From the IMG/VR virus record IMGVR_UViG_3300045988_147492: a DNA stretch of 26,796 nt. One strand, written 5' to 3'. This document shows, piece after piece, positions 932-20,037 of this stretch (positions are counted from its first letter, which is position 1; each line of letters starts with the position of its first letter). Both the position numbers and the translations under genes were made by a program. The DNA comes from a virus. Its lineage: Duplodnaviria > Heunggongvirae > Uroviricota > Caudoviricetes. The notes under the pieces are model-generated. The model was not told the DNA's origin and ran no database searches. It worked only from the letters and a program-made list of their open reading frames with translations.

Positions 932-1123
932 ATGGAGTGGATTACACATATCATCACTTTCTTTGTCGGACTGGGAGCGGGTTGGTCGATTCGTGTCGTG
1001 TTTTCATCTAGAAAGCAAATTGGTAATTCCAGCGTGAACTCAAACAATCATACAGTTACTCAAACTGGTAACAGTGTTACAAATGGAAGTATTGTTGGCG
1101 GTAATCAGGATAGGTCACATTAA
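932..1123 (+). CDS. Small membrane-anchored protein (63 aa): one N-terminal hydrophobic helix followed by a Gly/Asn/Thr-rich repeat tail
   Basis: ATG start with an upstream AAGGA. Residues about 4-24 (ITHIITFFVGLGAGWSIRVVF) are hydrophobic. The C-terminal 20 aa (TVTQTGNSVTNGSIVGGNQD) recur at the N-terminus of the next ORF. AT-rich codon usage differs from the phage backbone. Confidence 0.5.
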   Translation: MEWITHIITFFVGLGAGWSIRVVFSSRKQIGNSSVNSNNHTVTQTGNSVTNGSIVGGNQDRSH

Positions 1124-1134
1124 GAGGTGTTGGT

Positions 1135-1698
1135 GTGTCTATCGAACAGTCAGGAAATACCGTAACAAATGGCAACATAATTTCTGGTGATCAGACTAAT
1201 CATATATTCAATTATCCTGTTAAAGGAACTAACCGGGAGATACAGAAACTTTATGAGTGTTTGAAGAGAGGTGATATAGGGGAAGCGGTTCCGGGGTTTT
1301 GTGCTGAACTAGAGCATTATATGTCCCTTCAGCCTGATATTGATGTTCGGGGGTTAGACGCTAAATTACTCGAGAGTAATAGAAAAGATTTGTTGTTTTT
1401 AGCTAAGCAGATGAAGGAAAAAGCGACAAAAGCCATAATGCGTCGCCAGACGTCAAAAACTGCACAAAGAATATTTGTAATAATTTTAGATCAAATTCAT
1501 TTTGATTTTATAACGAAAGTAACACCACTTATAGAAGCGGATAGCTCCAGAGTGATTGTTGATGAGAAAATCGCTTCAATAATTGATGAATTATATTCGT
1601 CTTTGGGAGAGAACTTGCTAGAGCTAACAGCAAAAGATCTCTTGGGATTACTATTTTTTCTGGGTGGCAATTGCCATATAAGGTGGGATAAATGCTAA
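1135..1698 (+). CDS. Predicted alpha-helical protein (187 aa, GTG start) beginning with the same 20-aa repeat motif as the preceding ORF; candidate effector or adaptor component
   Basis: GTG start at 1135 preceded by GAGG at 1124-1127. The N-terminus SIEQSGNTVTNGNIISGDQT matches the tail of the upstream ORF. The 3' end overlaps the next ORF by 7 nt, consistent with an operon. Confidence 0.55.
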   Translation: MSIEQSGNTVTNGNIISGDQTNHIFNYPVKGTNREIQKLYECLKRGDIGEAVPGFCAELEHYMSLQPDIDVRGLDAKLLESNRKDLLFLAKQMKEKATKAIMRRQTSKTAQRIFVIILDQIHFDFITKVTPLIEADSSRVIVDEKIASIIDELYSSLGENLLELTAKDLLGLLFFLGGNCHIRWDKC

Positions 1699-2192
1699 TT
1701 TACCATCCAGCATATGATGCATATCATTGTTTATTCAGAATGATTGCTCTTATAGACCATGTAAATGAAATTGAGGTAGATAAGGCCAGAATTTTGGACT
1801 TCTATCTGCTATTTCCTGCTTTGGTATCTGAAATTAGAATGCCTCATAATTATTCTTCAATGAAGAAAGAAGCGAAGAAGTATTCTAATATATATCGGGA
1901 TCCTATTAATGTTAGATCTACATTCAGAGATATGTATGAAATTCAAATGGCAGCAATAAGATGTCTTGCAGCTACTGGGTTGGTTGAGATGGATTGTCTT
2001 GAGAAAAACATTATAAAGAGAACAGATAAGTCTGTTCCAGATGGCTTATTACTTTCTATTAATAATTTTATTAATACGAATAAAACTATTAATACATTTA
2101 TCATAGATACACTATCTAAATTCCATTTGGTTGGAAAAGATGGTTTAAAAGATAGAACGAAGTTAATGGAGTTTAGATATGACTATTCTTAA
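1692..2192 (+). CDS. Small helical protein (166 aa), translationally coupled between the upstream ORF and the ATPase; candidate middle or accessory component
   Basis: ATG at 1692 with AGGTGGG at about 1679-1685. It overlaps the upstream ORF by 7 nt and the downstream ATPase by 14 nt. Composition is AT-rich like the rest of the cassette. Confidence 0.6.
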   Translation: MLIYHPAYDAYHCLFRMIALIDHVNEIEVDKARILDFYLLFPALVSEIRMPHNYSSMKKEAKKYSNIYRDPINVRSTFRDMYEIQMAAIRCLAATGLVEMDCLEKNIIKRTDKSVPDGLLLSINNFINTNKTINTFIIDTLSKFHLVGKDGLKDRTKLMEFRYDYS

Positions 2193-4116
2193 TCCATCTT
2201 TTTTTGTTAGTAAATTAAAAGTTTTCCAAGCTGGGCATGAAGCATTTAGCTGTGTTTTCCATAAAGGGGTAAATGTAATAAGGGGGCGAAATAGCTCTGG
2301 CAAAACTACTGTTATGGATCTTTTAGCATTTTCACTTGGTGCTGAAAATATTAGCTTGAAACCAACAGCTCTTTTATGTTCATTTACCATGGTTGAAGTG
2401 CTTTTGAATAATAATCTTGCCTGTTTTAAGCGGGAGATAAGTTCAGAATCCATGCGGCCGTTGAGTATTTTTTGGGGCTCGATGGATAAAGCTCTTAACT
2501 CATCACCGAGTCAGTGGCAAACTTATCCTTTTAAGCGTTCAGAAAAATCACTGAGTTTTTCTCAGGTAATTCTAAATGCTTTGGATATGCCTCTAGCTCA
2601 AGGAGAGGGTGCTTCAATTTTAACAATGCATCAAATCCTACGTGTATTATATGCAGATCAGCCATCTCTTCATAGTCCTATATTTAGGAACGATAATTTT
2701 GATAGAGCTCTAACACGAGAGACTATTGGTGATTATTTATGTGGTATATTTGATGACAAACTTTATAGCTCTTTGATTAGGCTTAAACAGGTTGATGCTG
2801 AACTTTCGACAAAAATTGTTGAGCTGAAAAGCATATTTAAAGTTCTTGGACGCTCTGGGCAATCGCAGCATGTAAGTTTTATTGACGATAAAATAAAAGA
2901 GCTAAGAGAGAAGAAAGAAAAGATCAATGGAGAGCTTATCTCTCTCAAAGAGAGTAATAACTCTTCTGTTAATGATAAAAATGCTGATAAAACTAAAACT
3001 AACAACCTTCGAAAAAATTTAAATAAAGCGAAGGAAGAAGAAGTAAAAAATATTGACAGTATCCATATGTTAGAAATGGAGATAGCTGACTCTGAAATGT
3101 TCATTAATGAGTTAGAATCCAGATTGCGCTCTCTTAATGAATCAAGTATTGCCAGAGACTATTTTAGCAACGTTAAATTTCAATTTTGTCCCAGTTGTTT
3201 AAGTGAGTTGAATATTTCCTCTGAAAATGAGTGCTCATTATGTAAAAATCACGCGCCAGAGGGTAGTGATGCTCCTCAATTATTAAGGATGAAAAATGAG
3301 ATTTCTATCCAATTAAAAGAATCCAGAGATCTTCTTGAGCATAATTATGTAAAACTGAGAGAGCTTAAGAGCCAATCTCCTGCTTTAAAGCAAAAAGTGC
3401 GAGATTTAATTCGTGAATATGAAGAAGTCTCTAAGGTTTGGGAAAATGCCTATGAAATAGAGTTTGAAACTCTTACTAAGGCTCTGGGACGTGTTGAAGA
3501 AGAAATTAAACAGGCTTGTGAATTACAAAAACTTAGTGATGTAATATCTGATTTGCAAAAAGATCGTGATAGTCTGCAGTCAGAGAAGGAGAGATTGTCC
3601 TCTTTAATTGAATCTTTGGAGAGTAAAGAGGAATATAGGAAGAAGGATATTTCTAAAACTATAGAAAACATTATGAAAAGACTTCTTAAAAAAGATCTTC
3701 CATTGCAGACTGAATTTATTGATCCTAGAAAAGTTAATTTTAGCTTTGCCGATAATACTGTTTATGTAAATGGGTCTAAGTATTTTTCAGAAAGTTCAGC
3801 AGTTGTATTAAGACATCTCTTTCATTTAGCATTGTTAACTGCAAGTATTGAAAAAAAATACATGAGATTACCTCGTTTCCTAATGCTTGATGGAATTGAC
3901 GATGGTGGAATGGAGAAAGAGCGCAGTCACAATCTGCAGAAAATAATAGTACAAGAAACTCAATCGTATCAATATGATTTTCAAATAATTTATGCTACAT
4001 CGGAGATTAATCCAGAATATGAAAATACCGATTTGATTGTTGGTCGATATTTTAATCCAGATGATAAATCATTAAAGATAAATTATACCGCTCTTGATAA
4101 AGATTTATTGAACTAA
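2179..4116 (+). CDS. SMC/Rad50-like ABC ATPase (645 aa): N-terminal Walker A, long central coiled coil with a CxxC-x11-CxxC zinc-hook-like motif, C-terminal signature-like and Walker B/D-loop/H-loop region; no nuclease domain
   Basis: Walker A GRNSSGKT at residues 36-43 (nt 2284-2307). A Lys/Glu/Leu-rich heptad-like region spans roughly residues 190-520 and produces the antisense low-complexity ORFs at 2763-3104 and 3450-3671. Cysteines C337, C340, C352 and C355 lie at nt 3187-3243. Walker-B-like FLMLDGIDDGG sits near residue 567, followed by ERSHNL. ATG at 2179 with GGAG 8 nt upstream. Confidence 0.8.
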   Translation: MTILNPSFFVSKLKVFQAGHEAFSCVFHKGVNVIRGRNSSGKTTVMDLLAFSLGAENISLKPTALLCSFTMVEVLLNNNLACFKREISSESMRPLSIFWGSMDKALNSSPSQWQTYPFKRSEKSLSFSQVILNALDMPLAQGEGASILTMHQILRVLYADQPSLHSPIFRNDNFDRALTRETIGDYLCGIFDDKLYSSLIRLKQVDAELSTKIVELKSIFKVLGRSGQSQHVSFIDDKIKELREKKEKINGELISLKESNNSSVNDKNADKTKTNNLRKNLNKAKEEEVKNIDSIHMLEMEIADSEMFINELESRLRSLNESSIARDYFSNVKFQFCPSCLSELNISSENECSLCKNHAPEGSDAPQLLRMKNEISIQLKESRDLLEHNYVKLRELKSQSPALKQKVRDLIREYEEVSKVWENAYEIEFETLTKALGRVEEEIKQACELQKLSDVISDLQKDRDSLQSEKERLSSLIESLESKEEYRKKDISKTIENIMKRLLKKDLPLQTEFIDPRKVNFSFADNTVYVNGSKYFSESSAVVLRHLFHLALLTASIEKKYMRLPRFLMLDGIDDGGMEKERSHNLQKIIVQETQSYQYDFQIIYATSEINPEYENTDLIVGRYFNPDDKSLKINYTALDKDLLN

Positions 4117-4120
4117 CAAC

Positions 4121-4150
4121 CAAAACCATGCATAACCATGCATGGTTTTG
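4121..4150. terminator. Perfect 12-bp inverted repeat (caaaaccatgca / tgcatggttttg) with a 6-nt loop, containing a 10-bp direct repeat aaccatgcat x2; putative terminator and cargo boundary
   Basis: Arms at 4121-4132 and 4139-4150 are exact reverse complements. It lies 5 nt after the ATPase stop and about 100 bp before cos. The T-run is partly inside the stem, so terminator function is uncertain. Confidence 0.4.
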
Positions 4151-4249
4151 CATTTATATCAGCTTGTTTTTGAATCGGGGCAAGTCCAGGGGTGGTAAGC
4201 TGTTTGGAGAAAACTGCAACTGCATTAAAACCGCCCCGTGAAGCGGGCG

Positions 4250-4268
4250 GGCGAGGCGGGGAAAGCAC
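4250..4268. other. cos: cos site: 19-nt cohesive-end sequence of P2-type phages (GGCGAGGCGGGGAAAGCAC)
   Basis: The sequence ggcgaggcggggaaagcac is present at 4250-4268, in the expected place between the cargo locus and portal gene Q. The match to the P2 cohesive end is from memory, not from a search. Confidence 0.6.
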
Positions 4269-4410
4269 TGCGCGCTGGCGGTGGTGCTGATTTTATTTTT
4301 TCAGCGTCTCAGCGCGTCGTGACGGCGCTTAGTCTGCCCGTTGAGGCGTTGGTGTGTCTGCGGGGTGTTTTGTGCGGTGGTGAGCGTGTGAGGGCGTGAT
4401 GACGGGGTGT

Positions 4411-4432
4411 AAAAAAGCCGCCCGCAGGCGGC
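4411..4432 (-). terminator. Rho-independent terminator immediately after Q on the minus strand
   Basis: On the minus strand the Q stop at 4440-4438 is followed by GCCGCC-UGCG-GGCGGC (6-bp GC stem, 4-nt loop; plus-strand coordinates 4417-4432) and then six U residues (plus-strand aaaaaa at 4411-4416). Confidence 0.6.
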
Positions 4433-4437
4433 GATGT

Positions 4438-5472
4438 TCAGCCGTTGTCAGTGTCCAGTGAGTAGTTTTTAAATCGGATGACCTCCTGACCGAGCCAGCC
4501 GTTTATCTCGCGGATCCTGTCCTGTAACGGGATAAGCTCATTGCGGACAAAGACCTTTGCCACTTTCTCAATATCACCCAGCGACCCGACGTTTTCCGGC
4601 TTGCCACCCATCAACTGAAAGGGGATGCGGTGCGCGTCAAGCAGGTCAGCGGCGCTGGCTTTTTTGATATTAAAAAAATCGTCCTTCGTTGCCACTTCAC
4701 TGAGCGGGATAATTTTAATGCCGTCGGCTTTCCCCTGAGGGGCATAGAGAAACAGATTTTTAAAGTTATTGCGGCCTTTCGACTTAACCATGTTTTCGCG
4801 AAGCATTTCGATATCGTTGCGATCCTGCACGGCATCGGTGACGTACATGATGTATCCGGCATGTGCGCCGTTTTCGTAATACTTGCGGCGGAACAGCGTG
4901 GCCGACTCATTCAGCCAGGCAGAGTTAAGGGCGCTGAGATATTCCGGCAGGCCGTACAGCTCCTGATTAATATCGGGCTCCAGCAGGTGAAACACGGAGC
5001 CGGGCGCGAAGGCTGTCGGCTCGTTGAAGGACGGCACCCACCAGTAAACATCCTCTTCCACGCCACGACGGGTATATTTCGCCGGTGAGGTTTCCAGTCT
5101 GATGACCTTACTGGTGGTGCTGTAGCGCTTTTCCAGAAACGCATTACCGAACACCAGAAAATCCAGCACAAAGCGGCTGAAATCCTGCTGAGAAAGCCAC
5201 GGATGCGGGATAAATGTCGAGGCCAGAATATTACGTTTGACGTAAATCGGTGAGCTGTGATGCACGGCAGCACGCAGGCTTTTTGCCAGACCGGTAAAGC
5301 TGACCGGTGGCTCATACCATCTGCCGTTACTGATGCACTCGACGTAATCCAGAATGTCACGGCGGTCGAGTACCGGCACCGGCTCACCAAAGGTGAATGC
5401 CTCCATTTTCGGGGCGCTGGCGGTGATTGTTTTTGCCGCAGGTTGCGGTGTTTTCCCTTTTTTCTTGCTCAT
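4438..5472 (-). CDS. Q: Portal protein (344 aa)
   Basis: The length equals P2 gpQ. It lies next to cos and is transcribed towards it. Its start overlaps the stop of P (TGATG on the minus strand), as in the P2 P-Q operon. Confidence 0.93.
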   Translation of the reverse strand: MSKKKGKTPQPAAKTITASAPKMEAFTFGEPVPVLDRRDILDYVECISNGRWYEPPVSFTGLAKSLRAAVHHSSPIYVKRNILASTFIPHPWLSQQDFSRFVLDFLVFGNAFLEKRYSTTSKVIRLETSPAKYTRRGVEEDVYWWVPSFNEPTAFAPGSVFHLLEPDINQELYGLPEYLSALNSAWLNESATLFRRKYYENGAHAGYIMYVTDAVQDRNDIEMLRENMVKSKGRNNFKNLFLYAPQGKADGIKIIPLSEVATKDDFFNIKKASAADLLDAHRIPFQLMGGKPENVGSLGDIEKVAKVFVRNELIPLQDRIREINGWLGQEVIRFKNYSLDTDNG

Positions 5473-16110: not shown

Positions 16111-18360
16111 ATGAGCACAAAATTCAGAACCGTTATCACCACTGCCGGTGCAGCAAAGCTGGCAGCGGCAACCGCACCGGGAGGGCGGAAGGTCAACATT
16201 ACCACGATGGCCGTCGGGGATGGCGGTGGTAAATTGCCTGTCCCGGATGCCGGACAGACCGGGCTTATCCATGAAGTCTGGCGACATGCGCTGAACAAAA
16301 TCAGCCAGGACAAACGAAACAGTAATTATATTATCGCAGAGCTGGTTATTCCGCCGGAGGTGGGCGGTTTCTGGATGCGTGAGCTTGGCCTGTACGATGA
16401 TGCTGGAACGTTAATTGCTGTGGCGAACATGGCCGAAAGTTATAAGCCTGCCCTTGCCGAAGGCTCAGGGCGTTCGCAGACCTGCCGCATGGTCATCATC
16501 GTCAGCAGTGTGGCCTCAGTGGCGCTGACCATTGACACCACAACGGTGATGGCGACGCAGGATTACGTTGATGACAAAATTGCAGAGCACGAACAGTCAC
16601 GACGTCACCCGGACGCCTCGCTGACCGCAAAAGGTTTTACTCAGTTAAGCAGTGCGACCAACAGCACGTCTGAAACACTGGCCGCAACGCCGAAAGCGGT
16701 AAAGGCCGCTTATGATCTTGCTAACGGGAAATATACCGCGCAGGATGCCACCACAGCGCGAAAAGGCCTTGTCCAGCTCAGTAGCGCCACCAATAGCGAT
16801 TCTGAAACGCTTGCGGCAACGCCAAAGGCGGTAAAGGCAGCATATGACCTCGCTAACGGGAAATATACCGCACAGGATGCCACCACCGCGCGAAAAGGTC
16901 TTGTCCAGCTAAGTAGCGCCACCAACAGCGATTCTGAAACGCTGGCTGCAACGCCAAAGGCGGTTAAGACAGCGTATGACCTTGCTAACGGGAAATACAC
17001 TGCACAGGATGCCACCACCGCGCGGAAAGGCCTTGTCCAGCTCAGTAGCGCCACCAACAGTGATTCTGAAACGCAGGCCGCAACACCAAAAGCGGTGAAG
17101 TCTGCCTATGACAATGCTGAAAAACGTCTTCAGAAAGATCAGAACGGTGCGGATATTCCTGATAAAGGACGCTTCCTGAGTAACATTAATGTTTACAGCA
17201 AAGGTGAAGTGGATAAGAAAAAGGGAATGCGAAAGTATTCGTTTGCAGCCCCTGCAAATGTCGTTGCCGGGAAGTGGTATCCCGTTATCTTTCGCCGTGC
17301 TGCCAGCCTTTCAGGAGAAATGGCATCCCGCGTCGTTATTTCCACTGGTTGTTATAACAGCGATTATGTAATGAATAACTGCGAGTTTAATGGCATGGTT
17401 ATGCCCGGAGGCTGGACTGATCGTGGTTCATATGCGGCAGGTTATTTCTGGACGTATCAGACTAATGAGCGTTCAATCCATTCCATTGTTACAAGCCTGA
17501 AAGATGATGATGTATGTAGTGTTTTTTATGTTGAAGCCAGAGCTTTCCCTGTGCAAATTCTTGCAGAGGAAGGGCTAACGGTTATTGTTCCGACAGAGGA
17601 TTATGTCGTCGGTCAAACGACATATAAGTGGGGGGCAACTAATCCTGCTACAGAAAGCACGAACGCACAGGCTATTCTGGATTTTAAAAATGGGCGCGGT
17701 TATTACTGCTCACATCCATTTATTTCCAGCCTTTCGGGAAATGCTGCAACAGCAACGAAGTTAGCGAACGCAAGAAATATTAATGGTGTCAGATTTGATG
17801 GCTCTGCTGATATAAATATTAATACACTGGTATCCAGAAACCGTGTTACTGCATTAGGTGGGAGCGTAAAGGGGACACCAGGTATTCAGATGTATGAGGC
17901 ATACAACAATGGCTACCCAACAGCCTATGGTAATGTGCTTCATCTCACTGGCGTAACCGCAGTAGGAGAGGGTGAGTTACTTATTGGCTGGAGTGGAACC
18001 AGCGGTGCTCATGCTCCGGCATATATTCGCTCCCGACGAGATACCACAGATGCTAACTGGTCTGGATGGGCGCAACTATATACAACTGCTCATAAACCCT
18101 CAGCGGGAGATGTTGGTGCATACACCAAAGCTGAATCAGATTCACGTTATGTGAGAGACATGCGGCTGGGCGGTGCATCTACATATAAACCAGCAAATAA
18201 TGGTACTACATGGACGCATCAGGCTCCGCCAGGTTGCGTATATACCGGCATTATTGTTCAGGATACCGGCTCAAACTCTGCCGATAACATTGGTGGCGTA
18301 TATTACAGACCGGTGCAGAAATACATTAACGGGACATGGTATAACGTGGCGCAGGTATAA
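16111..18360 (+). CDS. H: Tail fibre protein H (749 aa) with a conserved N-terminus, about four tandem 40-aa repeats, and an AT-richer divergent C-terminal receptor-binding region
   Basis: The position matches P2 gpH, but the protein is about 80 aa longer than P2 H (recalled as 669 aa). Repeats of TARKGLVQLSSATNSDSETLAATPKAVKAAYDLANGKYTAQDAT are visible in the translation. Confidence 0.9.
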   Translation: MSTKFRTVITTAGAAKLAAATAPGGRKVNITTMAVGDGGGKLPVPDAGQTGLIHEVWRHALNKISQDKRNSNYIIAELVIPPEVGGFWMRELGLYDDAGTLIAVANMAESYKPALAEGSGRSQTCRMVIIVSSVASVALTIDTTTVMATQDYVDDKIAEHEQSRRHPDASLTAKGFTQLSSATNSTSETLAATPKAVKAAYDLANGKYTAQDATTARKGLVQLSSATNSDSETLAATPKAVKAAYDLANGKYTAQDATTARKGLVQLSSATNSDSETLAATPKAVKTAYDLANGKYTAQDATTARKGLVQLSSATNSDSETQAATPKAVKSAYDNAEKRLQKDQNGADIPDKGRFLSNINVYSKGEVDKKKGMRKYSFAAPANVVAGKWYPVIFRRAASLSGEMASRVVISTGCYNSDYVMNNCEFNGMVMPGGWTDRGSYAAGYFWTYQTNERSIHSIVTSLKDDDVCSVFYVEARAFPVQILAEEGLTVIVPTEDYVVGQTTYKWGATNPATESTNAQAILDFKNGRGYYCSHPFISSLSGNAATATKLANARNINGVRFDGSADININTLVSRNRVTALGGSVKGTPGIQMYEAYNNGYPTAYGNVLHLTGVTAVGEGELLIGWSGTSGAHAPAYIRSRRDTTDANWSGWAQLYTTAHKPSAGDVGAYTKAESDSRYVRDMRLGGASTYKPANNGTTWTHQAPPGCVYTGIIVQDTGSNSADNIGGVYYRPVQKYINGTWYNVAQV
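16621..17110 (+). repeat. In-frame tandem repeat array inside H: about 3.8 copies of a 120-bp unit
   Basis: Near-identical 120-bp units with synonymous differences begin at about 16621, 16741, 16861 and 16981; they also generate the spurious antisense ORF at 16710-17057. Confidence 0.85.
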
Positions 18361-18891: not shown

Positions 18892-19106
18892 GTTGTATTA
18901 GCTTACATATCTATGGCACAGAGTAAAGCCTAATCTGACAGTCCGCTCTGTGCCAGAAGCGGATGTTGTAAAGTTTATTTGGAGAATAATGGTTAGATGA
19001 ACTATGTAGATCATAGCCCTCAAAAGTCAGTAGTCTTACACCATATAAATAGTCATTTAGAGATAGTACACCACCTACAAAAAAAGAGATAAAGCGCGCA
19101 AGCTGC

Positions 19107-19259
19107 ATGAAGATACATAAAATGCTTCATCCTGGACTTGATGTTAGAATTAATGCTGACACTCGCTTTGTAAAAGATAAAGATGATTTTGAGGATGATT
19201 GGTTTATTAATTATCTCCAATGTTTGTTGTTTTGTGATGATAAAGATTCTCTGGATTAA
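19107..19259 (+). CDS. Small acidic hypothetical protein (50 aa) in the G-FI cargo island
   Basis: ATG at 19107 and stop at 19257-19259, about 20 nt before a bidirectional terminator. Too short for the ORF track; no strong Shine-Dalgarno, so coding status is uncertain. Confidence 0.3.
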   Translation: MKIHKMLHPGLDVRINADTRFVKDKDDFEDDWFINYLQCLLFCDDKDSLD

Positions 19260-19277
19260 TAGGATAGTAATTCAATT

Positions 19278-19306
19278 AAAAGAGACCTTATAGAAGGTCT
19301 CTTTTA
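19278..19306. terminator. Bidirectional rho-independent terminator (stem agagacctt / aaggtctct, loop atag, flanked by A-run and T-run)
   Basis: 9-bp perfect stem at 19281-19289 and 19294-19302, with aaa upstream and tttt downstream. It lies between the convergent small plus-strand ORF and the minus-strand membrane protein gene. Confidence 0.6.
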
Positions 19307-19329
19307 AGTTATGGGGGCTGATTTTATAT

Positions 19330-19707
19330 TCAATAGCGTATGCTCATCGAAGAAATAAACTCATAAAATGTAAAGACAGCCAGCAAAAACATACAGATAA
19401 AGATAAGGGAAATAGCACACTTAACTAAGGGCTGAACCCCCCGAGGTGTTCCCCATGGTTTAGACATTTGGGTTATAACCCAAATAAATAAGGCCACAAA
19501 ACAGCAAACACCAGCCAATCCGAGCAGAGATATTATGACAACTCCAAACAGATTTCCAACATCTAGTTTATCTGTTTTTGCAACTAGGGTTAACAAACCA
19601 GCAATAATAGTTGCAATCGATATTCCCGCAATGGTTGTGAGATCGGCGATAACAGCCAGTTTTTCTTTAGTATTTCCTTGAGTAAAAACCTCTAAAATTG
19701 ATTTCAT
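19330..19707 (-). CDS. Integral membrane protein (125 aa, about three transmembrane helices); candidate lysogenic-conversion or superinfection-exclusion cargo at the P2 Z/fun position
   Basis: ATG at 19707 with an AGGTGG Shine-Dalgarno upstream on the minus strand; the track's 129-aa form starts at an upstream GTG. Three hydrophobic segments (LAVIADLTTIAGISIATIIAGLLTLVA, LFGVVIISLLGLAGVCCFVALFIWVI, LVKCAISLIFICMFLLAVFTFYEFI). AT-rich; ends just before the bidirectional terminator. Confidence 0.6.
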   Translation of the reverse strand: MKSILEVFTQGNTKEKLAVIADLTTIAGISIATIIAGLLTLVAKTDKLDVGNLFGVVIISLLGLAGVCCFVALFIWVITQMSKPWGTPRGVQPLVKCAISLIFICMFLLAVFTFYEFISSMSIRY

Positions 19708-19749
19708 GGAAATAACCACCTACTATCGATTATATTCAGGAGCTTTTTA

Positions 19750-19959
19750 TCATAACGATATCAGATAGATAAGGACATTGTAATATTTTGGATGATTTAA
19801 ACTTGCTTTTGTAACTTTAATGTCCACTTTTCGCTCAAAGCAGACTGTCAGATTTGATAGCATTTGGGTTATGTAAATTGTCAGTCGGAAAATGAGTGTG
19901 TACAAATCAGGACAGGCGGGCGAATTGCCCGCATTTTCTTTATCTGTTGTTTCATCCAC
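19750..19959 (-). CDS. Doubtful small ORF (69 aa, GTG start) upstream of the membrane protein gene
   Basis: Present in the ORF track, but it has no clear Shine-Dalgarno and overlaps the predicted FI late-promoter region; it may simply be 5' leader of the membrane-protein transcript. Confidence 0.15.
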   Translation of the reverse strand: MDETTDKENAGNSPACPDLYTLIFRLTIYITQMLSNLTVCFERKVDIKVTKASLNHPKYYNVLIYLISL

Positions 19960-20037
19960 TGACCAGCCAGGTCAAATAGCGTCTCATGCTCTGCACAACA
20001 GAAAATAATTGCACCCATTAACCACGGAGTTAAACGG
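19944..20037 (+). promoter_or_regulatory. Late promoter region for FI-FII-E-T-U-D; candidate activator element CTGTTGTtTCA...CCA at 19944-19965
   Basis: The 22-bp element shares CTGTTGTnTCA...CCA with the element at 7310-7331 upstream of O. It lies about 75-95 bp upstream of the FI ATG; GGAG Shine-Dalgarno at 20026-20029. Confidence 0.35.

Follow-up and report, generated by a model that had tools for sequence, protein, structure and literature searches.

A short-type Lamassu operon in a P2-like prophage and a small membrane protein as its candidate effector

In a viral genome fragment of the class Caudoviricetes (IMG/VR record IMGVR_UViG_3300045988_147492), analysed here over its whole stretch of 26,796 nucleotides and referred to below as the window, one plus-strand ORF (2179..4116) encodes a 645-aa ABC ATPase that carries no nuclease, and the locus raises the question of which machinery such a protein belongs to and which gene may supply its effector. 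The ORF is LmuB, the SMC/Rad50-like ABC ATPase and sensor subunit of a Lamassu/ABC-3C system, and in this respect a protein of an already known kind. The fuller reading that we favour, and consider reasonably probable, is that this LmuB serves a short-type Lamassu of a P2-like prophage, organised as a four-gene operon in which a small membrane protein acts as the effector by means of a short motif.

The ATPase and its place among LmuB proteins

The assignment draws on PADLOC, Pfam, AlphaFold2 and Foldseek. The PADLOC LmuB model PDLC03862 matches residues 6-573 (4.5e-47), other PADLOC LmuB models match as well (3.8e-35 and 8.8e-29), as do Pfam AAA_23 and SMC_N, and RefSeq names the genes of the locus ABC-three component system proteins. 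In a Foldseek comparison of the predicted model with the PDB the best matches were LmuB chains (9hqu_A, 5e-19; 9hqx_B, 9uxh_F, 9nyg_B and 9ux7_A), five different solved LmuB entries ranking above Rad50, SMC and JetC, at an identity to the solved LmuB chains of only 13-16%. The first-pass annotation of this DNA had listed LmuB among the profiles worth comparing, and this one proved to be the answer. Searching PDB sequences with the single protein turned up no more than a marginal match to an SMC head, and a profile search of PDB sequences reached 5y05 and not the solved LmuB chains; since both fell short, structure comparison was required to reach them. NCBIfam yielded only sub-threshold matches to Rad50, SMC and archaeal SMC-related proteins, and the weak PHROG matches are also of Rad50/SbcC/SMC type. 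The size of the protein fits short LmuB, for which an average of about 600 aa has been published.

A Walker A motif, the segment FLMLDGIDDGG followed by ERSHNL, and four cysteines had been picked out earlier from the letters alone, and all of them were found exactly where they had been placed. Walker A, GRNSSGKT, occupies residues 36-43 (2284..2307, plus strand, as are all coding features below), with N38, G41 and K42 invariant in 35/35 orthologues; FLMLDGIDDGG, a deviant Walker B with the D-loop, covers residues 567-577 (3877..3909), and ERSHNL residues 581-586. The cysteines 337, 340, 352 and 355 form an apical CPSC-x11-CSLC, a zinc hook or zinc ribbon between the coiled-coil arms (residues 337-355; 3187..3243), and five more cysteines lie at 25, 67, 82, 188 and 447. 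As to the ABC signature motif, which had been sought around FSESSAVV, its equivalent is this segment itself (residues 536-543; 3784..3807), with S537 and S539 invariant and a position at the N-terminus of the predicted helix 538-558, 30 residues ahead of Walker B. The published head-engagement mutant of Salmonella LmuB, S536R, lies at a nearby number in an LmuB of comparable length, the comparison being one by number and length only.

Conservation was assessed in 35 orthologues, each from an independent locus, and in a second alignment of 67 sequences. N38, G41, K42, H151-Q152, S537, S539, D571, D575, G577 and R582 are invariant among the 35, as are C337, P338, C340, C352, L354 and C355, and the four apical cysteines, together with P338 and L354, are kept in 67/67 sequences of the second alignment, the pattern across orthologues being C-P-x-C-x(11-13)-C-x-L-C. 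All motifs of the ABC head (Walker A, H151-Q152, FSESS at 536-540 and D571) are present and invariant or nearly so in the 35 orthologues, and because these come from independent loci the features are not due to chance. Directly after D571 stands neither Glu nor Gln: the residue is Gly in 30 orthologues and Asn in five. The Walker B published for short LmuB reads hhhhD[Q/S/T/E], so the D-G/D-N form is deviant as expected, yet it lies outside the published set of residues.

AlphaFold2 (mean pLDDT 80.3, pTM 0.63) predicts an ABC head whose two halves are set apart by two long helical arms, 193-328 going up and 365-505 coming down, which form an antiparallel coiled coil of about 310 residues placed between Walker A and Walker B. 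The earlier description of a Rad50-like ABC ATPase with a split head and a long coiled coil is borne out by this model, in which the arms are present and the head is of ABC type, and by the SMC/Rad50-like Foldseek matches; the claim that no nuclease is attached also stood, because the predicted chain terminates with the C-terminal half of the head. The apex (329-364) holds the four cysteines and four short beta-bridges, at low confidence (pLDDT 43-56). The sole sequence-level PDB match of the LmuB profile, 5y05 (MSMEG_4306; 6.8e-5), brings its zinc-ribbon CxxC into alignment with the first CxxC pair of LmuB (FCPSC), and, since each protomer has two such pairs, the apex may, judging from its sequence, form a C4 zinc ribbon within a single chain instead of a shared hook of the Rad50 type. 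Of the zinc hook or zinc ribbon suggested earlier, the four invariant cysteines at the apex between the arms are retained, and the shared Rad50-type hook has become the less certain part. LmuB variants with a double CxxC have already been published. The ATPase itself is an ordinary, recognisable LmuB, and the interest of the locus lies in the genes upstream of it.

A four-gene operon next to cos

The operon consists of four genes and not of three: a small membrane protein (932..1123), a short LmuA (1135..1698), LmuC (1692..2192) and LmuB. LmuC (166 aa) is an ABC-3C middle component 5, matched over its full length by Pfam PF20291 (MC5, 1.3e-52) and weakly by the PADLOC LmuC model (0.011); its gene shares 7 nt with LmuA and 14 nt with LmuB, and its position between the two is kept in related loci. 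Directly after the stop of LmuB a scan of both strands for terminators found a perfect palindrome with a 13-bp stem (4121..4150), which is likely the terminator of the operon. Each of the four genes is intact and strongly constrained by purifying selection, and the four-gene arrangement is conserved over three bacterial classes and one Bacteroidota MAG.

At 4250..4268 on the plus strand lies a single exact match to GGCGAGGCGGGGAAAGCAC, which we take to be the cohesive-end sequence of P2 cos; none appeared in 100 shuffles. The operon is flanked by the replication endonuclease gene and the portal gene, and because the cos match adjoins it, we place it in the gpA-cos defence hotspot, the old/tin locus of P2, in a P2-like prophage. 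This hotspot has been defined previously (PMC9122126). The system was found on 18 IMG/VR viral contigs; in the INPHARED phage collection no record carries the island and only the adjacent portal gene matches. The hotspot context together with the presence on viral contigs would suggest for the operon an anti-phage or anti-plasmid role of the abortive-infection kind.

The small protein, the short LmuA and their matched motif

It had been proposed from the first reading that any effector function must come in trans from the upstream genes. This dependence holds and can be made more precise: no enzyme is encoded by the two adjacent genes, and the likeliest candidate is the 63-aa gene further upstream, whose product is probably the trans effector of this Lamassu operon. 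The protein (RefSeq hypothetical protein WP_001403151.1) consists of an N-terminal hydrophobic helix, MEWITHIITFFVGLGAGWSIRVVF, a basic/polar linker with basic residues directly after the helix, and a C-terminal Gly/Asn-rich segment, TQTGNSVTNGSIVGGNQ. Its ATG is preceded, 8 nt ahead, by the SD-like AAGGA, and 11 nt separate the ORF from LmuA. A match to phrog_17975 (2.5e-45) was obtained and no Pfam family match, while a homology search reached only close enterobacterial relatives. Over its homologues, 49-68 aa long, there is a single hydrophobic helix and no room for a bundle; the Kyte-Doolittle maximum of the helix is 1.58 in the window and 1.2-2.9 in orthologues, values at the edge of what a constitutive transmembrane segment would show. 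The N-terminus, M-[ED]-[WYH]-[LI]-[ST], resembles the 'MEPIS' motif over five residues only.

In 34 of 38 loci, drawn from Gamma-, Beta- and Alphaproteobacteria and one Bacteroidota MAG, short LmuA is directly preceded by a small ORF whose product has a hydrophobic helix and the motif. This ORF is present in every viral locus examined as well, and its dN/dS of 0.06-0.11 indicates purifying selection. The one locus with an esterase-bearing CTD9 protein, L037, has no small ORF. A reading of ORF 932-1123 and LmuA as one frameshifted gene was rejected: they are separate and intact in nearly every one of the 38 genome loci and in the viral loci examined, each ORF has an SD sequence of its own, and both are under purifying selection.

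The short LmuA (187 aa) is composed of an N-terminal motif, EQSGNTVTNGNIISGDQ (residues 4-20), a linker and the CTD9 domain (Pfam PF20285, 2.4e-29, residues 73-184), and it ends in the conserved FLGGNCHIRWDKC. With only 72 residues ahead of CTD9, Pfam and AlphaFold2 give no enzymatic effector domain (nuclease, Sir2, protease, lipase etc.); the model stays under pLDDT 50 over residues 1-30 and is wholly helical over residues 34-187 (pLDDT 70-95). None of the PADLOC LmuA models matches the protein, and a fold search with its model gave no significant match, CTD9 aligning weakly with the LmuA-like chain 9a6c_B (E = 0.44). The family comprises 610 clusters at 50% identity, and among the best 150 of these nearly all members are 180-200 aa long. 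A strict regular expression recovers the motif in 68 of 147 family representatives and inspection by eye finds variants of it in nearly all the remaining ones, Q5 and N8 being invariant in the LmuA alignment. In relatives the CTD9 protein carries an esterase domain (DUF676; L037) or a distinct globular N-domain (P0375), and because effector domains hold this N-terminal slot elsewhere in the CTD9 family, the LmuA motif fills the effector position. By analogy, CTD9 itself would be a helical docking and oligomerisation domain, the oligomerisation being extrapolated from CTD7-type LmuA.

This family is probably the same, as matched by description, as the seemingly 'effector-less' Clade O of short Lamassu, which comprises more than 100 sequences from more than 40 species and keeps LmuB and LmuC intact (Haudiquet et al., PNAS 2025, PMC12663957). 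The text on Clade O in that paper mentions no fourth gene and no common motif, and the word 'transmembrane' has 0 matches in it.

The motif of about 20 residues found at the C-terminus of the small protein is the same as that at the N-terminus of LmuA, a layout seen in the 34 of 38 loci, and the two copies co-evolve. Alignment of a small-protein tail with its cognate LmuA N-terminus scores 57.0 on average, whereas non-cognate pairs reach 39.1 (permutation p <= 5e-5); in 12 of 27 loci the best-scoring partner is the cognate one. The codon is the same for only 45% of the identical motif residues, and the match is thus maintained at the protein level; on the same codon usage, recent duplication or gene conversion was rejected as the source of the likeness. 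The tails are composed of G 16%, N 12%, V 10% and D 9%, and their length, the Gly/Asn/Val richness and the predicted disorder of the LmuA copy are typical of amyloid-signalling motifs, the general properties of which have been reviewed (PMC8086366). Some tails of the small protein hold two pseudo-repeats, as in HET-s-type motifs, and most loci have a single copy.

Proposed mechanism, alternatives and known systems

In other Lamassu systems oligomerisation brings nuclease domains together, and the C-terminal domain of LmuA has been described as an oligomerisation domain that is sequestered near the zinc hook and tetramerises once released (10.1101/2025.03.14.643221). In Bab/Agp, an amyloid-signalling abortive-infection system of E. 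coli, the small protein carries a hydrophobic helix at its N-terminus and a motif at its C-terminus, and what activates it is the matching motif at the N-terminus of the protein from the neighbouring gene (10.1101/2024.11.07.622273). By analogy with both, we propose that the LmuB dimer together with LmuC would keep LmuA monomeric by holding its helical CTD9 close to the Cys-rich apex. Upon binding of phage DNA ends or replication intermediates by the LmuB heads LmuA would be released and its CTD9 would oligomerise, gathering four copies of the 20-residue Gly/Asn/Val-rich N-terminal motif; this cluster might capture the matching C-terminal motif of the small protein, probably by cross-beta templating, and the hydrophobic helices brought together in this way would breach the membrane, so that the infected cell dies. 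The specific form of this proposal, a Lamassu alarm through a prion-like motif in which released LmuA nucleates a cross-beta fold and converts a minimal single-helix membrane executioner, we put forward tentatively, as an idea more open to doubt than the four-gene reading itself.

The same four genes would also accommodate an arrangement in which the motifs make an ordinary stable heteromeric contact and the small protein tethers LmuACB to the inner membrane without templating, with killing caused by clustering of the helices upon CTD9 oligomerisation or with the tether only positioning the sensor where phage DNA enters. Co-occurrence and co-evolution require interaction, not amyloid, the basic residues after the helix would put the motif in the cytoplasm, and the motif is short and in most loci single; yet it is disordered and of the composition usual for amyloid signalling, the pairing of an effector C-terminus with a partner N-terminus is laid out exactly as in validated amyloid pairs, and the HET-s-like pseudo-repeats of some effector-side tails point the same way, for which reasons we regard a mere tether as unlikely, if deserving of weight. 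A matched motif would fit inhibition equally well, and the small protein could then be a regulator or antitoxin-like decoy that keeps the LmuA motif inert, toxicity coming from LmuA, LmuB, LmuC or a recruited host factor. The invariant C-terminal GNCHIRWD(K)C of the LmuA CTD9 speaks for such a role, but the short LmuA has no recognisable catalytic domain, its motif stands where CTD9 relatives have an esterase or a globular N-domain, and proteins with a hydrophobic helix are typical executioners of abortive infection, which makes the decoy improbable.

A similarly slim chance attaches to the view that this is an effector-less Lamassu that does not kill, LmuB and LmuC for instance clamping phage DNA ends and so blocking them, or a decaying remnant, with the upstream ORF an unrelated hitch-hiker. 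It draws on the published remark that this clade has 'seemingly lost the effector domain' and on one published screen in which a similar variant, perhaps of the short CTD9 family and perhaps cloned without the small ORF, gave no protection. Against it, the four genes are intact under strongly purifying selection and are kept across three bacterial classes and the Bacteroidota MAG, in 610 family clusters, and since the motifs co-evolve, hitch-hiking cannot account for the small ORF. As for a Rad50/SbcC-type DNA-repair ATPase with its nuclease partner encoded elsewhere, the shared fold and the weak NCBIfam and PHROG matches to Rad50, SbcC and SMC are what one could cite in its favour; however, the operon has no Mre11/SbcD (phosphoesterase) gene, the coiled-coil arms are only about 135 residues each, each protomer has two CxxC pairs, Walker B reads D-G and has no Glu, LmuB chains stand above Rad50 in the structural ranking, and the neighbours MC5 and CTD9 are ABC-3C-specific and situated in a prophage defence hotspot, so that we give this explanation hardly any credence.

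On the favoured reading of a four-gene Lamassu with a membrane-protein effector, a branch of 610 clusters that has been described as effector-less, and that defence-finding tools leave uncalled or label incomplete, appears to use a separately encoded membrane protein of 50-70 aa, coupled to it by a co-evolving 20-residue motif. If this is true, the release-and-oligomerise switch of Lamassu is able to work through an effector that is not an enzyme, there is a concrete reason why such systems, when cloned as three genes, might give no protection in defence screens, and small upstream ORFs belong in system definitions. It would also mean that amyloid-type signalling, until now linked with NLR/STAND and TPR-GreA/B-PIN sensors, extends to SMC-like ones, and that such coupling occurs in ordinary unicellular Proteobacteria and P2-like phages. 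Should the more tentative amyloid reading hold, it would be the first link of SMC-family immune sensors with amyloid signalling, the 'effector-less' clade would be a four-gene system whose effector gene was overlooked, and the small protein would be the smallest known amyloid-controlled cell-death effector, a pore-lining helix alone.

With the known Lamassu/ABC-3C systems (LmuA-LmuC-LmuB, DdmABC of Vibrio cholerae, and LmuACB of Salmonella enterica, PDB 9hqu/9hqx) the locus shares the split ABC head, the short coiled coil, the apical CxxC and a Walker B that is deviant, if in a form of its own, as well as the A-C-B order of overlapping genes, a middle component of the MC family, a docking domain of the CTD family on LmuA, and a location in mobile elements and defence islands. 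It differs from them in the 20-aa motif that replaces an enzymatic N-domain in LmuA, in the additional upstream gene for a small protein, and in an LmuB with two CxxC pairs and D-G/N in place of D-Q/S/T/E. LmuB has been proposed to derive from SbcC. Rad50/SbcC is alike in the ABC head, the antiparallel coiled coil and the apical CxxC, and sensing of DNA ends would be expected of LmuB too; unlike it, the LmuB of the window has no Mre11/SbcD, much shorter arms, two CxxC pairs, no Glu in Walker B and a defence context. MSMEG_4306 and other C4 zinc-ribbon proteins (5y05) have a coiled coil that runs into a CxxC aligned with FCPSC, but they have no ABC head, and the match to LmuB is driven largely by the coiled coil. 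Closest to the upstream gene pair are Bab/Agp of E. coli and the Bell/NLR pairs of BASS, which likewise consist of adjacent genes for a small helix effector with a C-terminal motif of about 20 aa and a partner with an N-terminal motif, have motifs closer within pairs than between them, and occur in a prophage defence hotspot. Here, however, the partner is a 187-aa adaptor for an SMC-like ABC ATPase complex and not an NLR or a TPR-GreA/B-PIN sensor, and unlike in Bell/Babybell the effector would be a helix alone, having no four-helix sheath, the likeness to these pairs being one of sequence layout.

Identity and architecture of the ATPase

The ATPase encoded at 2179-4116 (plus strand, 645 residues) is almost certainly the LmuB of a Lamassu system. 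A comparison with LmuB profiles, which the first-pass annotation had proposed, identifies it as such, PADLOC LmuB models matching it over the full length (4.5e-47), and a Foldseek search with its AlphaFold2 model returns solved LmuB chains as the best matches (9hqu_A at 5e-19, then 9hqx, 9uxh, 9nyg and 9ux7), above Rad50, SMC and JetC, at an identity of 13-16%. Sequence searches of the PDB did not reach the Lamassu entries, Pfam assigns it to no family more specific than the generic AAA_23 and SMC_N, and the NCBIfam matches, to SMC and Rad50, are all sub-threshold. Both genes directly upstream belong to ABC-3C-specific Pfam families: LmuC, or Middle Component 5 (MC5), at 1692-2192 (plus strand; PF20291, 1.3e-52) and LmuA, with C-terminal domain 9 (CTD9), at 1135-1698 (plus strand; PF20285, 2.4e-29); A overlaps C by 7 nt and C overlaps B by 14 nt. 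RefSeq names are 'ABC-three component system protein', 'ABC-three component system middle component 5' and 'AAA family ATPase', and the ATPase itself adds one more member to an established family, already annotated in an ABC-3C system. ABC-3C, CTD9 and MC5 were reportedly defined by Krishnan et al. in 2020. LmuB proteins are described as Rad50 relatives of ~650 aa whose coiled coil is short and whose Walker B is deviant, many of them having a zinc hook (Lamassu reviews; 10.1101/2025.03.14.643221). The number of CxxC copies in short LmuB proteins varies from zero to two (Haudiquet et al., PMC12663957), and the double CxxC seen here is an already published variant.

The motifs read from the sequence in the first-pass annotation are all in place: Walker A (GRNSSGKT, residues 36-43), the Walker-B-like FLMLDGIDDGG (567-577) followed by ERSHNL (581-586), and cysteines 337, 340, 352 and 355. 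Orthologues were taken from 37 independent genome loci, and among the 35 full-length ATPases that were aligned the four cysteines, P338 and L354 are invariant, in the pattern C-P-x-C-x(11-13)-C-x-L-C, as are N38, G41, K42, H151-Q152, S537, S539, D571, D575, G577 and R582; the same positions are invariant in a separate alignment of 67 homologues from databases. S537 and S539 fall in FSESSAVV (536-543), the suggested place to look for a signature motif, and stand at the expected signature position, the FSESS site forming the N-terminus of a helix (538-558) 30 residues ahead of Walker B in the AlphaFold2 model. The head-engagement mutant S536R of Salmonella LmuB, a protein of similar length, lies near FSESS by residue number and not by a residue-level alignment (10.1101/2025.03.14.643221).

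The AlphaFold2 model, built on the orthologue alignment (mean pLDDT 80.3, pTM 0.63), predicts an ABC head made of residues 1-190 and 506-645, split by two long helical arms that ascend through 193-226, 235-258 and 269-328 and descend through 365-419 and 424-505. This architecture confirms both the coiled coil and the lack of a nuclease domain, and the overall interpretation of the ATPase in the first-pass annotation is supported. The helices are interrupted at 259-268 and 420-423, close to the folding point FP1 of Salmonella LmuB (266-276, 416-432; 10.1101/2025.03.14.643221). The Walker B aspartate is followed by Gly in 30 of 35 orthologues and by Asn in the other 5, never by Glu or Gln, and 10 of 35 have Tyr, Phe, Lys or Trp where the H-loop His would stand; hydrolysis is therefore predicted to be very poor, and the sequences suggest a protein that binds ATP and engages its heads. 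Poor hydrolysis has likewise been argued for other LmuB proteins (Lamassu reviews; 10.1101/2025.03.14.643221).

The apex (329-364) is modelled with low confidence (pLDDT 43-56), with four short beta-bridges beside both cysteine pairs. As each chain brings two CxxC pairs, a zinc site can be completed inside one protomer. The sole PDB match of the LmuB profile by sequence is MSMEG_4306 (5y05, 6.8e-5), a coiled coil with a terminal zinc ribbon whose structure was phased by zinc SAD, and its first CxxC aligns with FCPSC of LmuB. Together these two points hint that the apex may be a zinc ribbon rather than a shared hook of Rad50 style.

Prophage setting of the operon

The window is a P2-like prophage, in which the island has a GC content of 33-36% vs about 55-60% for the phage and sits between the genes of the replication endonuclease (gpA) and the portal (gpQ). 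At 4250-4268 there is a match to what we take to be the cohesive-end sequence of P2 cos. The island occupies the old/tin locus, the P2 defence hotspot that Rousset et al. defined (PMC9122126). It is present in 19 of 5,426 complete E. coli genomes, and the same system is carried by 18 viral contigs of IMG/VR, most of which have the size of a P2-like phage, and by no isolated phage record of INPHARED.

Five nt past the LmuB stop, at 4121-4150, lies a perfect palindrome with a 13-bp stem, CAAAACCATGCAT-AACC-ATGCATGGTTTTG, probably a bidirectional terminator at the operon end; it is a curious neighbour, as palindromic or hairpin DNA is reported to trigger some Lamassu systems (PMC11707656). Between the end of the replication gene and the small ORF there is a 500-bp AT-rich non-coding leader (431-931), where a plus-strand promoter scan gave nothing above shuffled expectation. 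A second low-GC island (18900-20030, 36-40% GC) separates the tail-fibre assembly and tail sheath genes, where P2 has its Z/fun hotspot, and its minus-strand ORF 19330..19719, encoding a multi-pass hydrophobic protein of 129 aa with no Pfam match, may represent a further gene for defence or exclusion. The tail-fibre gene (16111-18360) has, in translation, three to four tandem repeats of ~44 aa (…KGLVQLSSATNSDSETLAATPKAVKAAYDLANGKYTAQDATTAR…).

A short LmuA and a small protein with matching motifs

The proposal that any effector function must come in trans from upstream genes has gained support, and the candidate effector is the 63-aa product of the ORF at 932-1123 (plus strand), eleven nt upstream of LmuA. 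Its hydrophobic helix (MEWITHIITFFVGLGAGWSIRVVF) is followed by a basic/polar linker and then by a tail, TQTGNSVTNGSIVGGNQ, in which 10 of 17 positions agree with the LmuA N-terminus, EQSGNTVTNGNIISGDQ. Of 38 loci, 34 have an ORF of this architecture (49-68 aa) directly ahead of the short LmuA, and these span Enterobacterales, Pseudomonas, Burkholderiales, Xanthomonadales, Rhodocyclales, Alphaproteobacteria and a Bacteroidota MAG; the other four are two contig edges, an Azospirillum locus with an esterase-fused CTD9 (L037) and an Ottowia flava locus with an apparent frameshift (L018). In the last of these (about 4808-4993) the C-terminal motif is kept and the helix region is Cys/Arg-rich, probably through a frameshift, a sequencing error or decay of the copy. 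Purifying selection acts on the small ORF as strongly as on LmuA (dN/dS 0.06-0.11 vs 0.03-0.06), and its product has its own PHROG family, listed as function-unassigned.

The usual LmuA has an enzymatic N-terminal domain (PMC12663957; Lamassu reviews). In this LmuA of 187 aa Pfam detects CTD9 alone (residues 73-184), PADLOC LmuA models give no match, and AlphaFold2 predicts a disordered stretch (1-30, pLDDT below 50) ahead of a confident all-helical domain (34-187). Truncation is ruled out as the reason for this shortness, because the family, 610 clusters at 50% identity, is uniform in length, nearly all of the best 150 clusters having 180-200 aa and aligning from profile position 2-4, and its N-terminus is conserved (consensus QxGNxVxxGDIVGGD, with Q5 and N8 invariant). 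Very probably the family corresponds to clade O of the short Lamassu systems, whose LmuA is described as apparently deprived of its effector domain (Haudiquet et al., PMC12663957). The motif is absent from two CTD9 proteins with an N-terminal domain, that of L037 (locus positions 4026-5363; 446 aa, DUF676 serine-esterase), which also has no small upstream ORF, and the family representative P0375 (349 aa, a globular N-domain), which supports the view that motif and small protein replace the effector domain. The best-conserved stretch of LmuA is its C-terminal end (residues 175-187, FLGGNCHIRWDKC), with G178, N179, C180, H181, R183, W184 and D185 invariant and C187 nearly so; this Cys-His-x5-Cys tail might share a metal site with the Cys apex of LmuB or act as a docking latch.

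The likeness of the two motifs could have been left by one ancient duplication followed by independent divergence, in which case cognate and non-cognate pairs should score equally. Local alignment of small-protein tails against LmuA N-regions in 27 non-redundant loci argues against this: the mean score is 57.0 within cognate pairs and 39.1 when partners come from different loci (permutation p <= 5e-5), the true partner comes out on top in 12 of 27 cases (median rank 2), and lineage-specific features are common to both partners at two of the orthologous loci (VTQKNIQARGDVVGGNKTTTIN and VTQKGIRADGDVVAGDKHTTIN in L022, GNTVRGHMSGRDVNV and GNTVHGHMGGRDVNV in L035). Gene conversion, which would also produce a match, is rejected by the low codon sharing: identical motif residues use the same codon in 42 of 93 cases, at a nucleotide identity of 63%, so the match is kept by selection at the protein level. 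We consider it probable that the effector is this 63-aa protein, coupled through the matched motif; the Lamassu system described here is a distinct variant whose likely effector was overlooked.

Proposed mechanism and known systems

In Salmonella LmuACB the C-terminal domain of LmuA is an oligomerisation module, which two LmuB chains and LmuC sequester beside the zinc hooks; on activation it is freed, and the tetramer gathers the N-terminal domains (10.1101/2025.03.14.643221). In E. coli Bab/Agp a small protein has a hydrophobic helix at its N-terminus and a 20-aa motif at its C-terminus, and amyloid templating by the matching N-terminal motif of the adjacent gene's product activates it (10.1101/2024.11.07.622273). 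Combining the two, we propose that the short LmuA, once released, would oligomerise and cluster its N-terminal motifs, that this cluster would bind the small-protein tails and impose order on them, and that the helices of the small protein would in turn be brought together and impair the membrane. Every step beyond the four genes and the co-evolution of the motifs is what we infer. Basic residues directly past the small-protein helix are compatible with an N-out/C-in orientation, which would place the tail in the cytoplasm. The composition of the motif (G 16%, N 12%, V 10%) agrees with the general description of amyloid-signalling motifs (PMC8086366). That the coupling is amyloid-like templating is a tentative suggestion, which we rate as somewhat improbable.

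Full-text literature searches, which did not cover the ABC-3C founding paper (Krishnan et al. 2020), returned no relevant paper joining Lamassu and amyloid, and none on amyloid signalling in ABC-3C, SMC-like or ABC ATPase systems; the text of the Bab/Agp preprint mentions neither Lamassu nor ABC nor SMC (10.1101/2024.11.07.622273). A similar variant, described as a Lamassu missing a known effector, reportedly gave no protection in one defence screen (PMC13586616).

The Bab/Agp pair lies in a prophage defence hotspot, as does the Lamassu operon here (10.1101/2024.11.07.622273), and Bell/NLR pairs have the same layout as Bab/Agp. Most small-protein orthologues start with M-[E/D]-[W/Y/H]-[L/I]-[S/T] (residues 1-5), which resembles the 'MEPIS' of Bell/Hell domains and several antiphage NLRs (10.1101/2024.11.07.622273), five residues being too few for homology. 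In three alphaproteobacterial loci (L035, L036, L038) the tail has two motif pseudo-repeats, e.g. SANTVSGDSQG / QSGNTVRGHMSG, and the LmuA N-terminus is longer, with a second GGD(V/L)xI element; these pseudo-repeats recall the two-rung effector-side repeats of HET-s and some BASS motifs.
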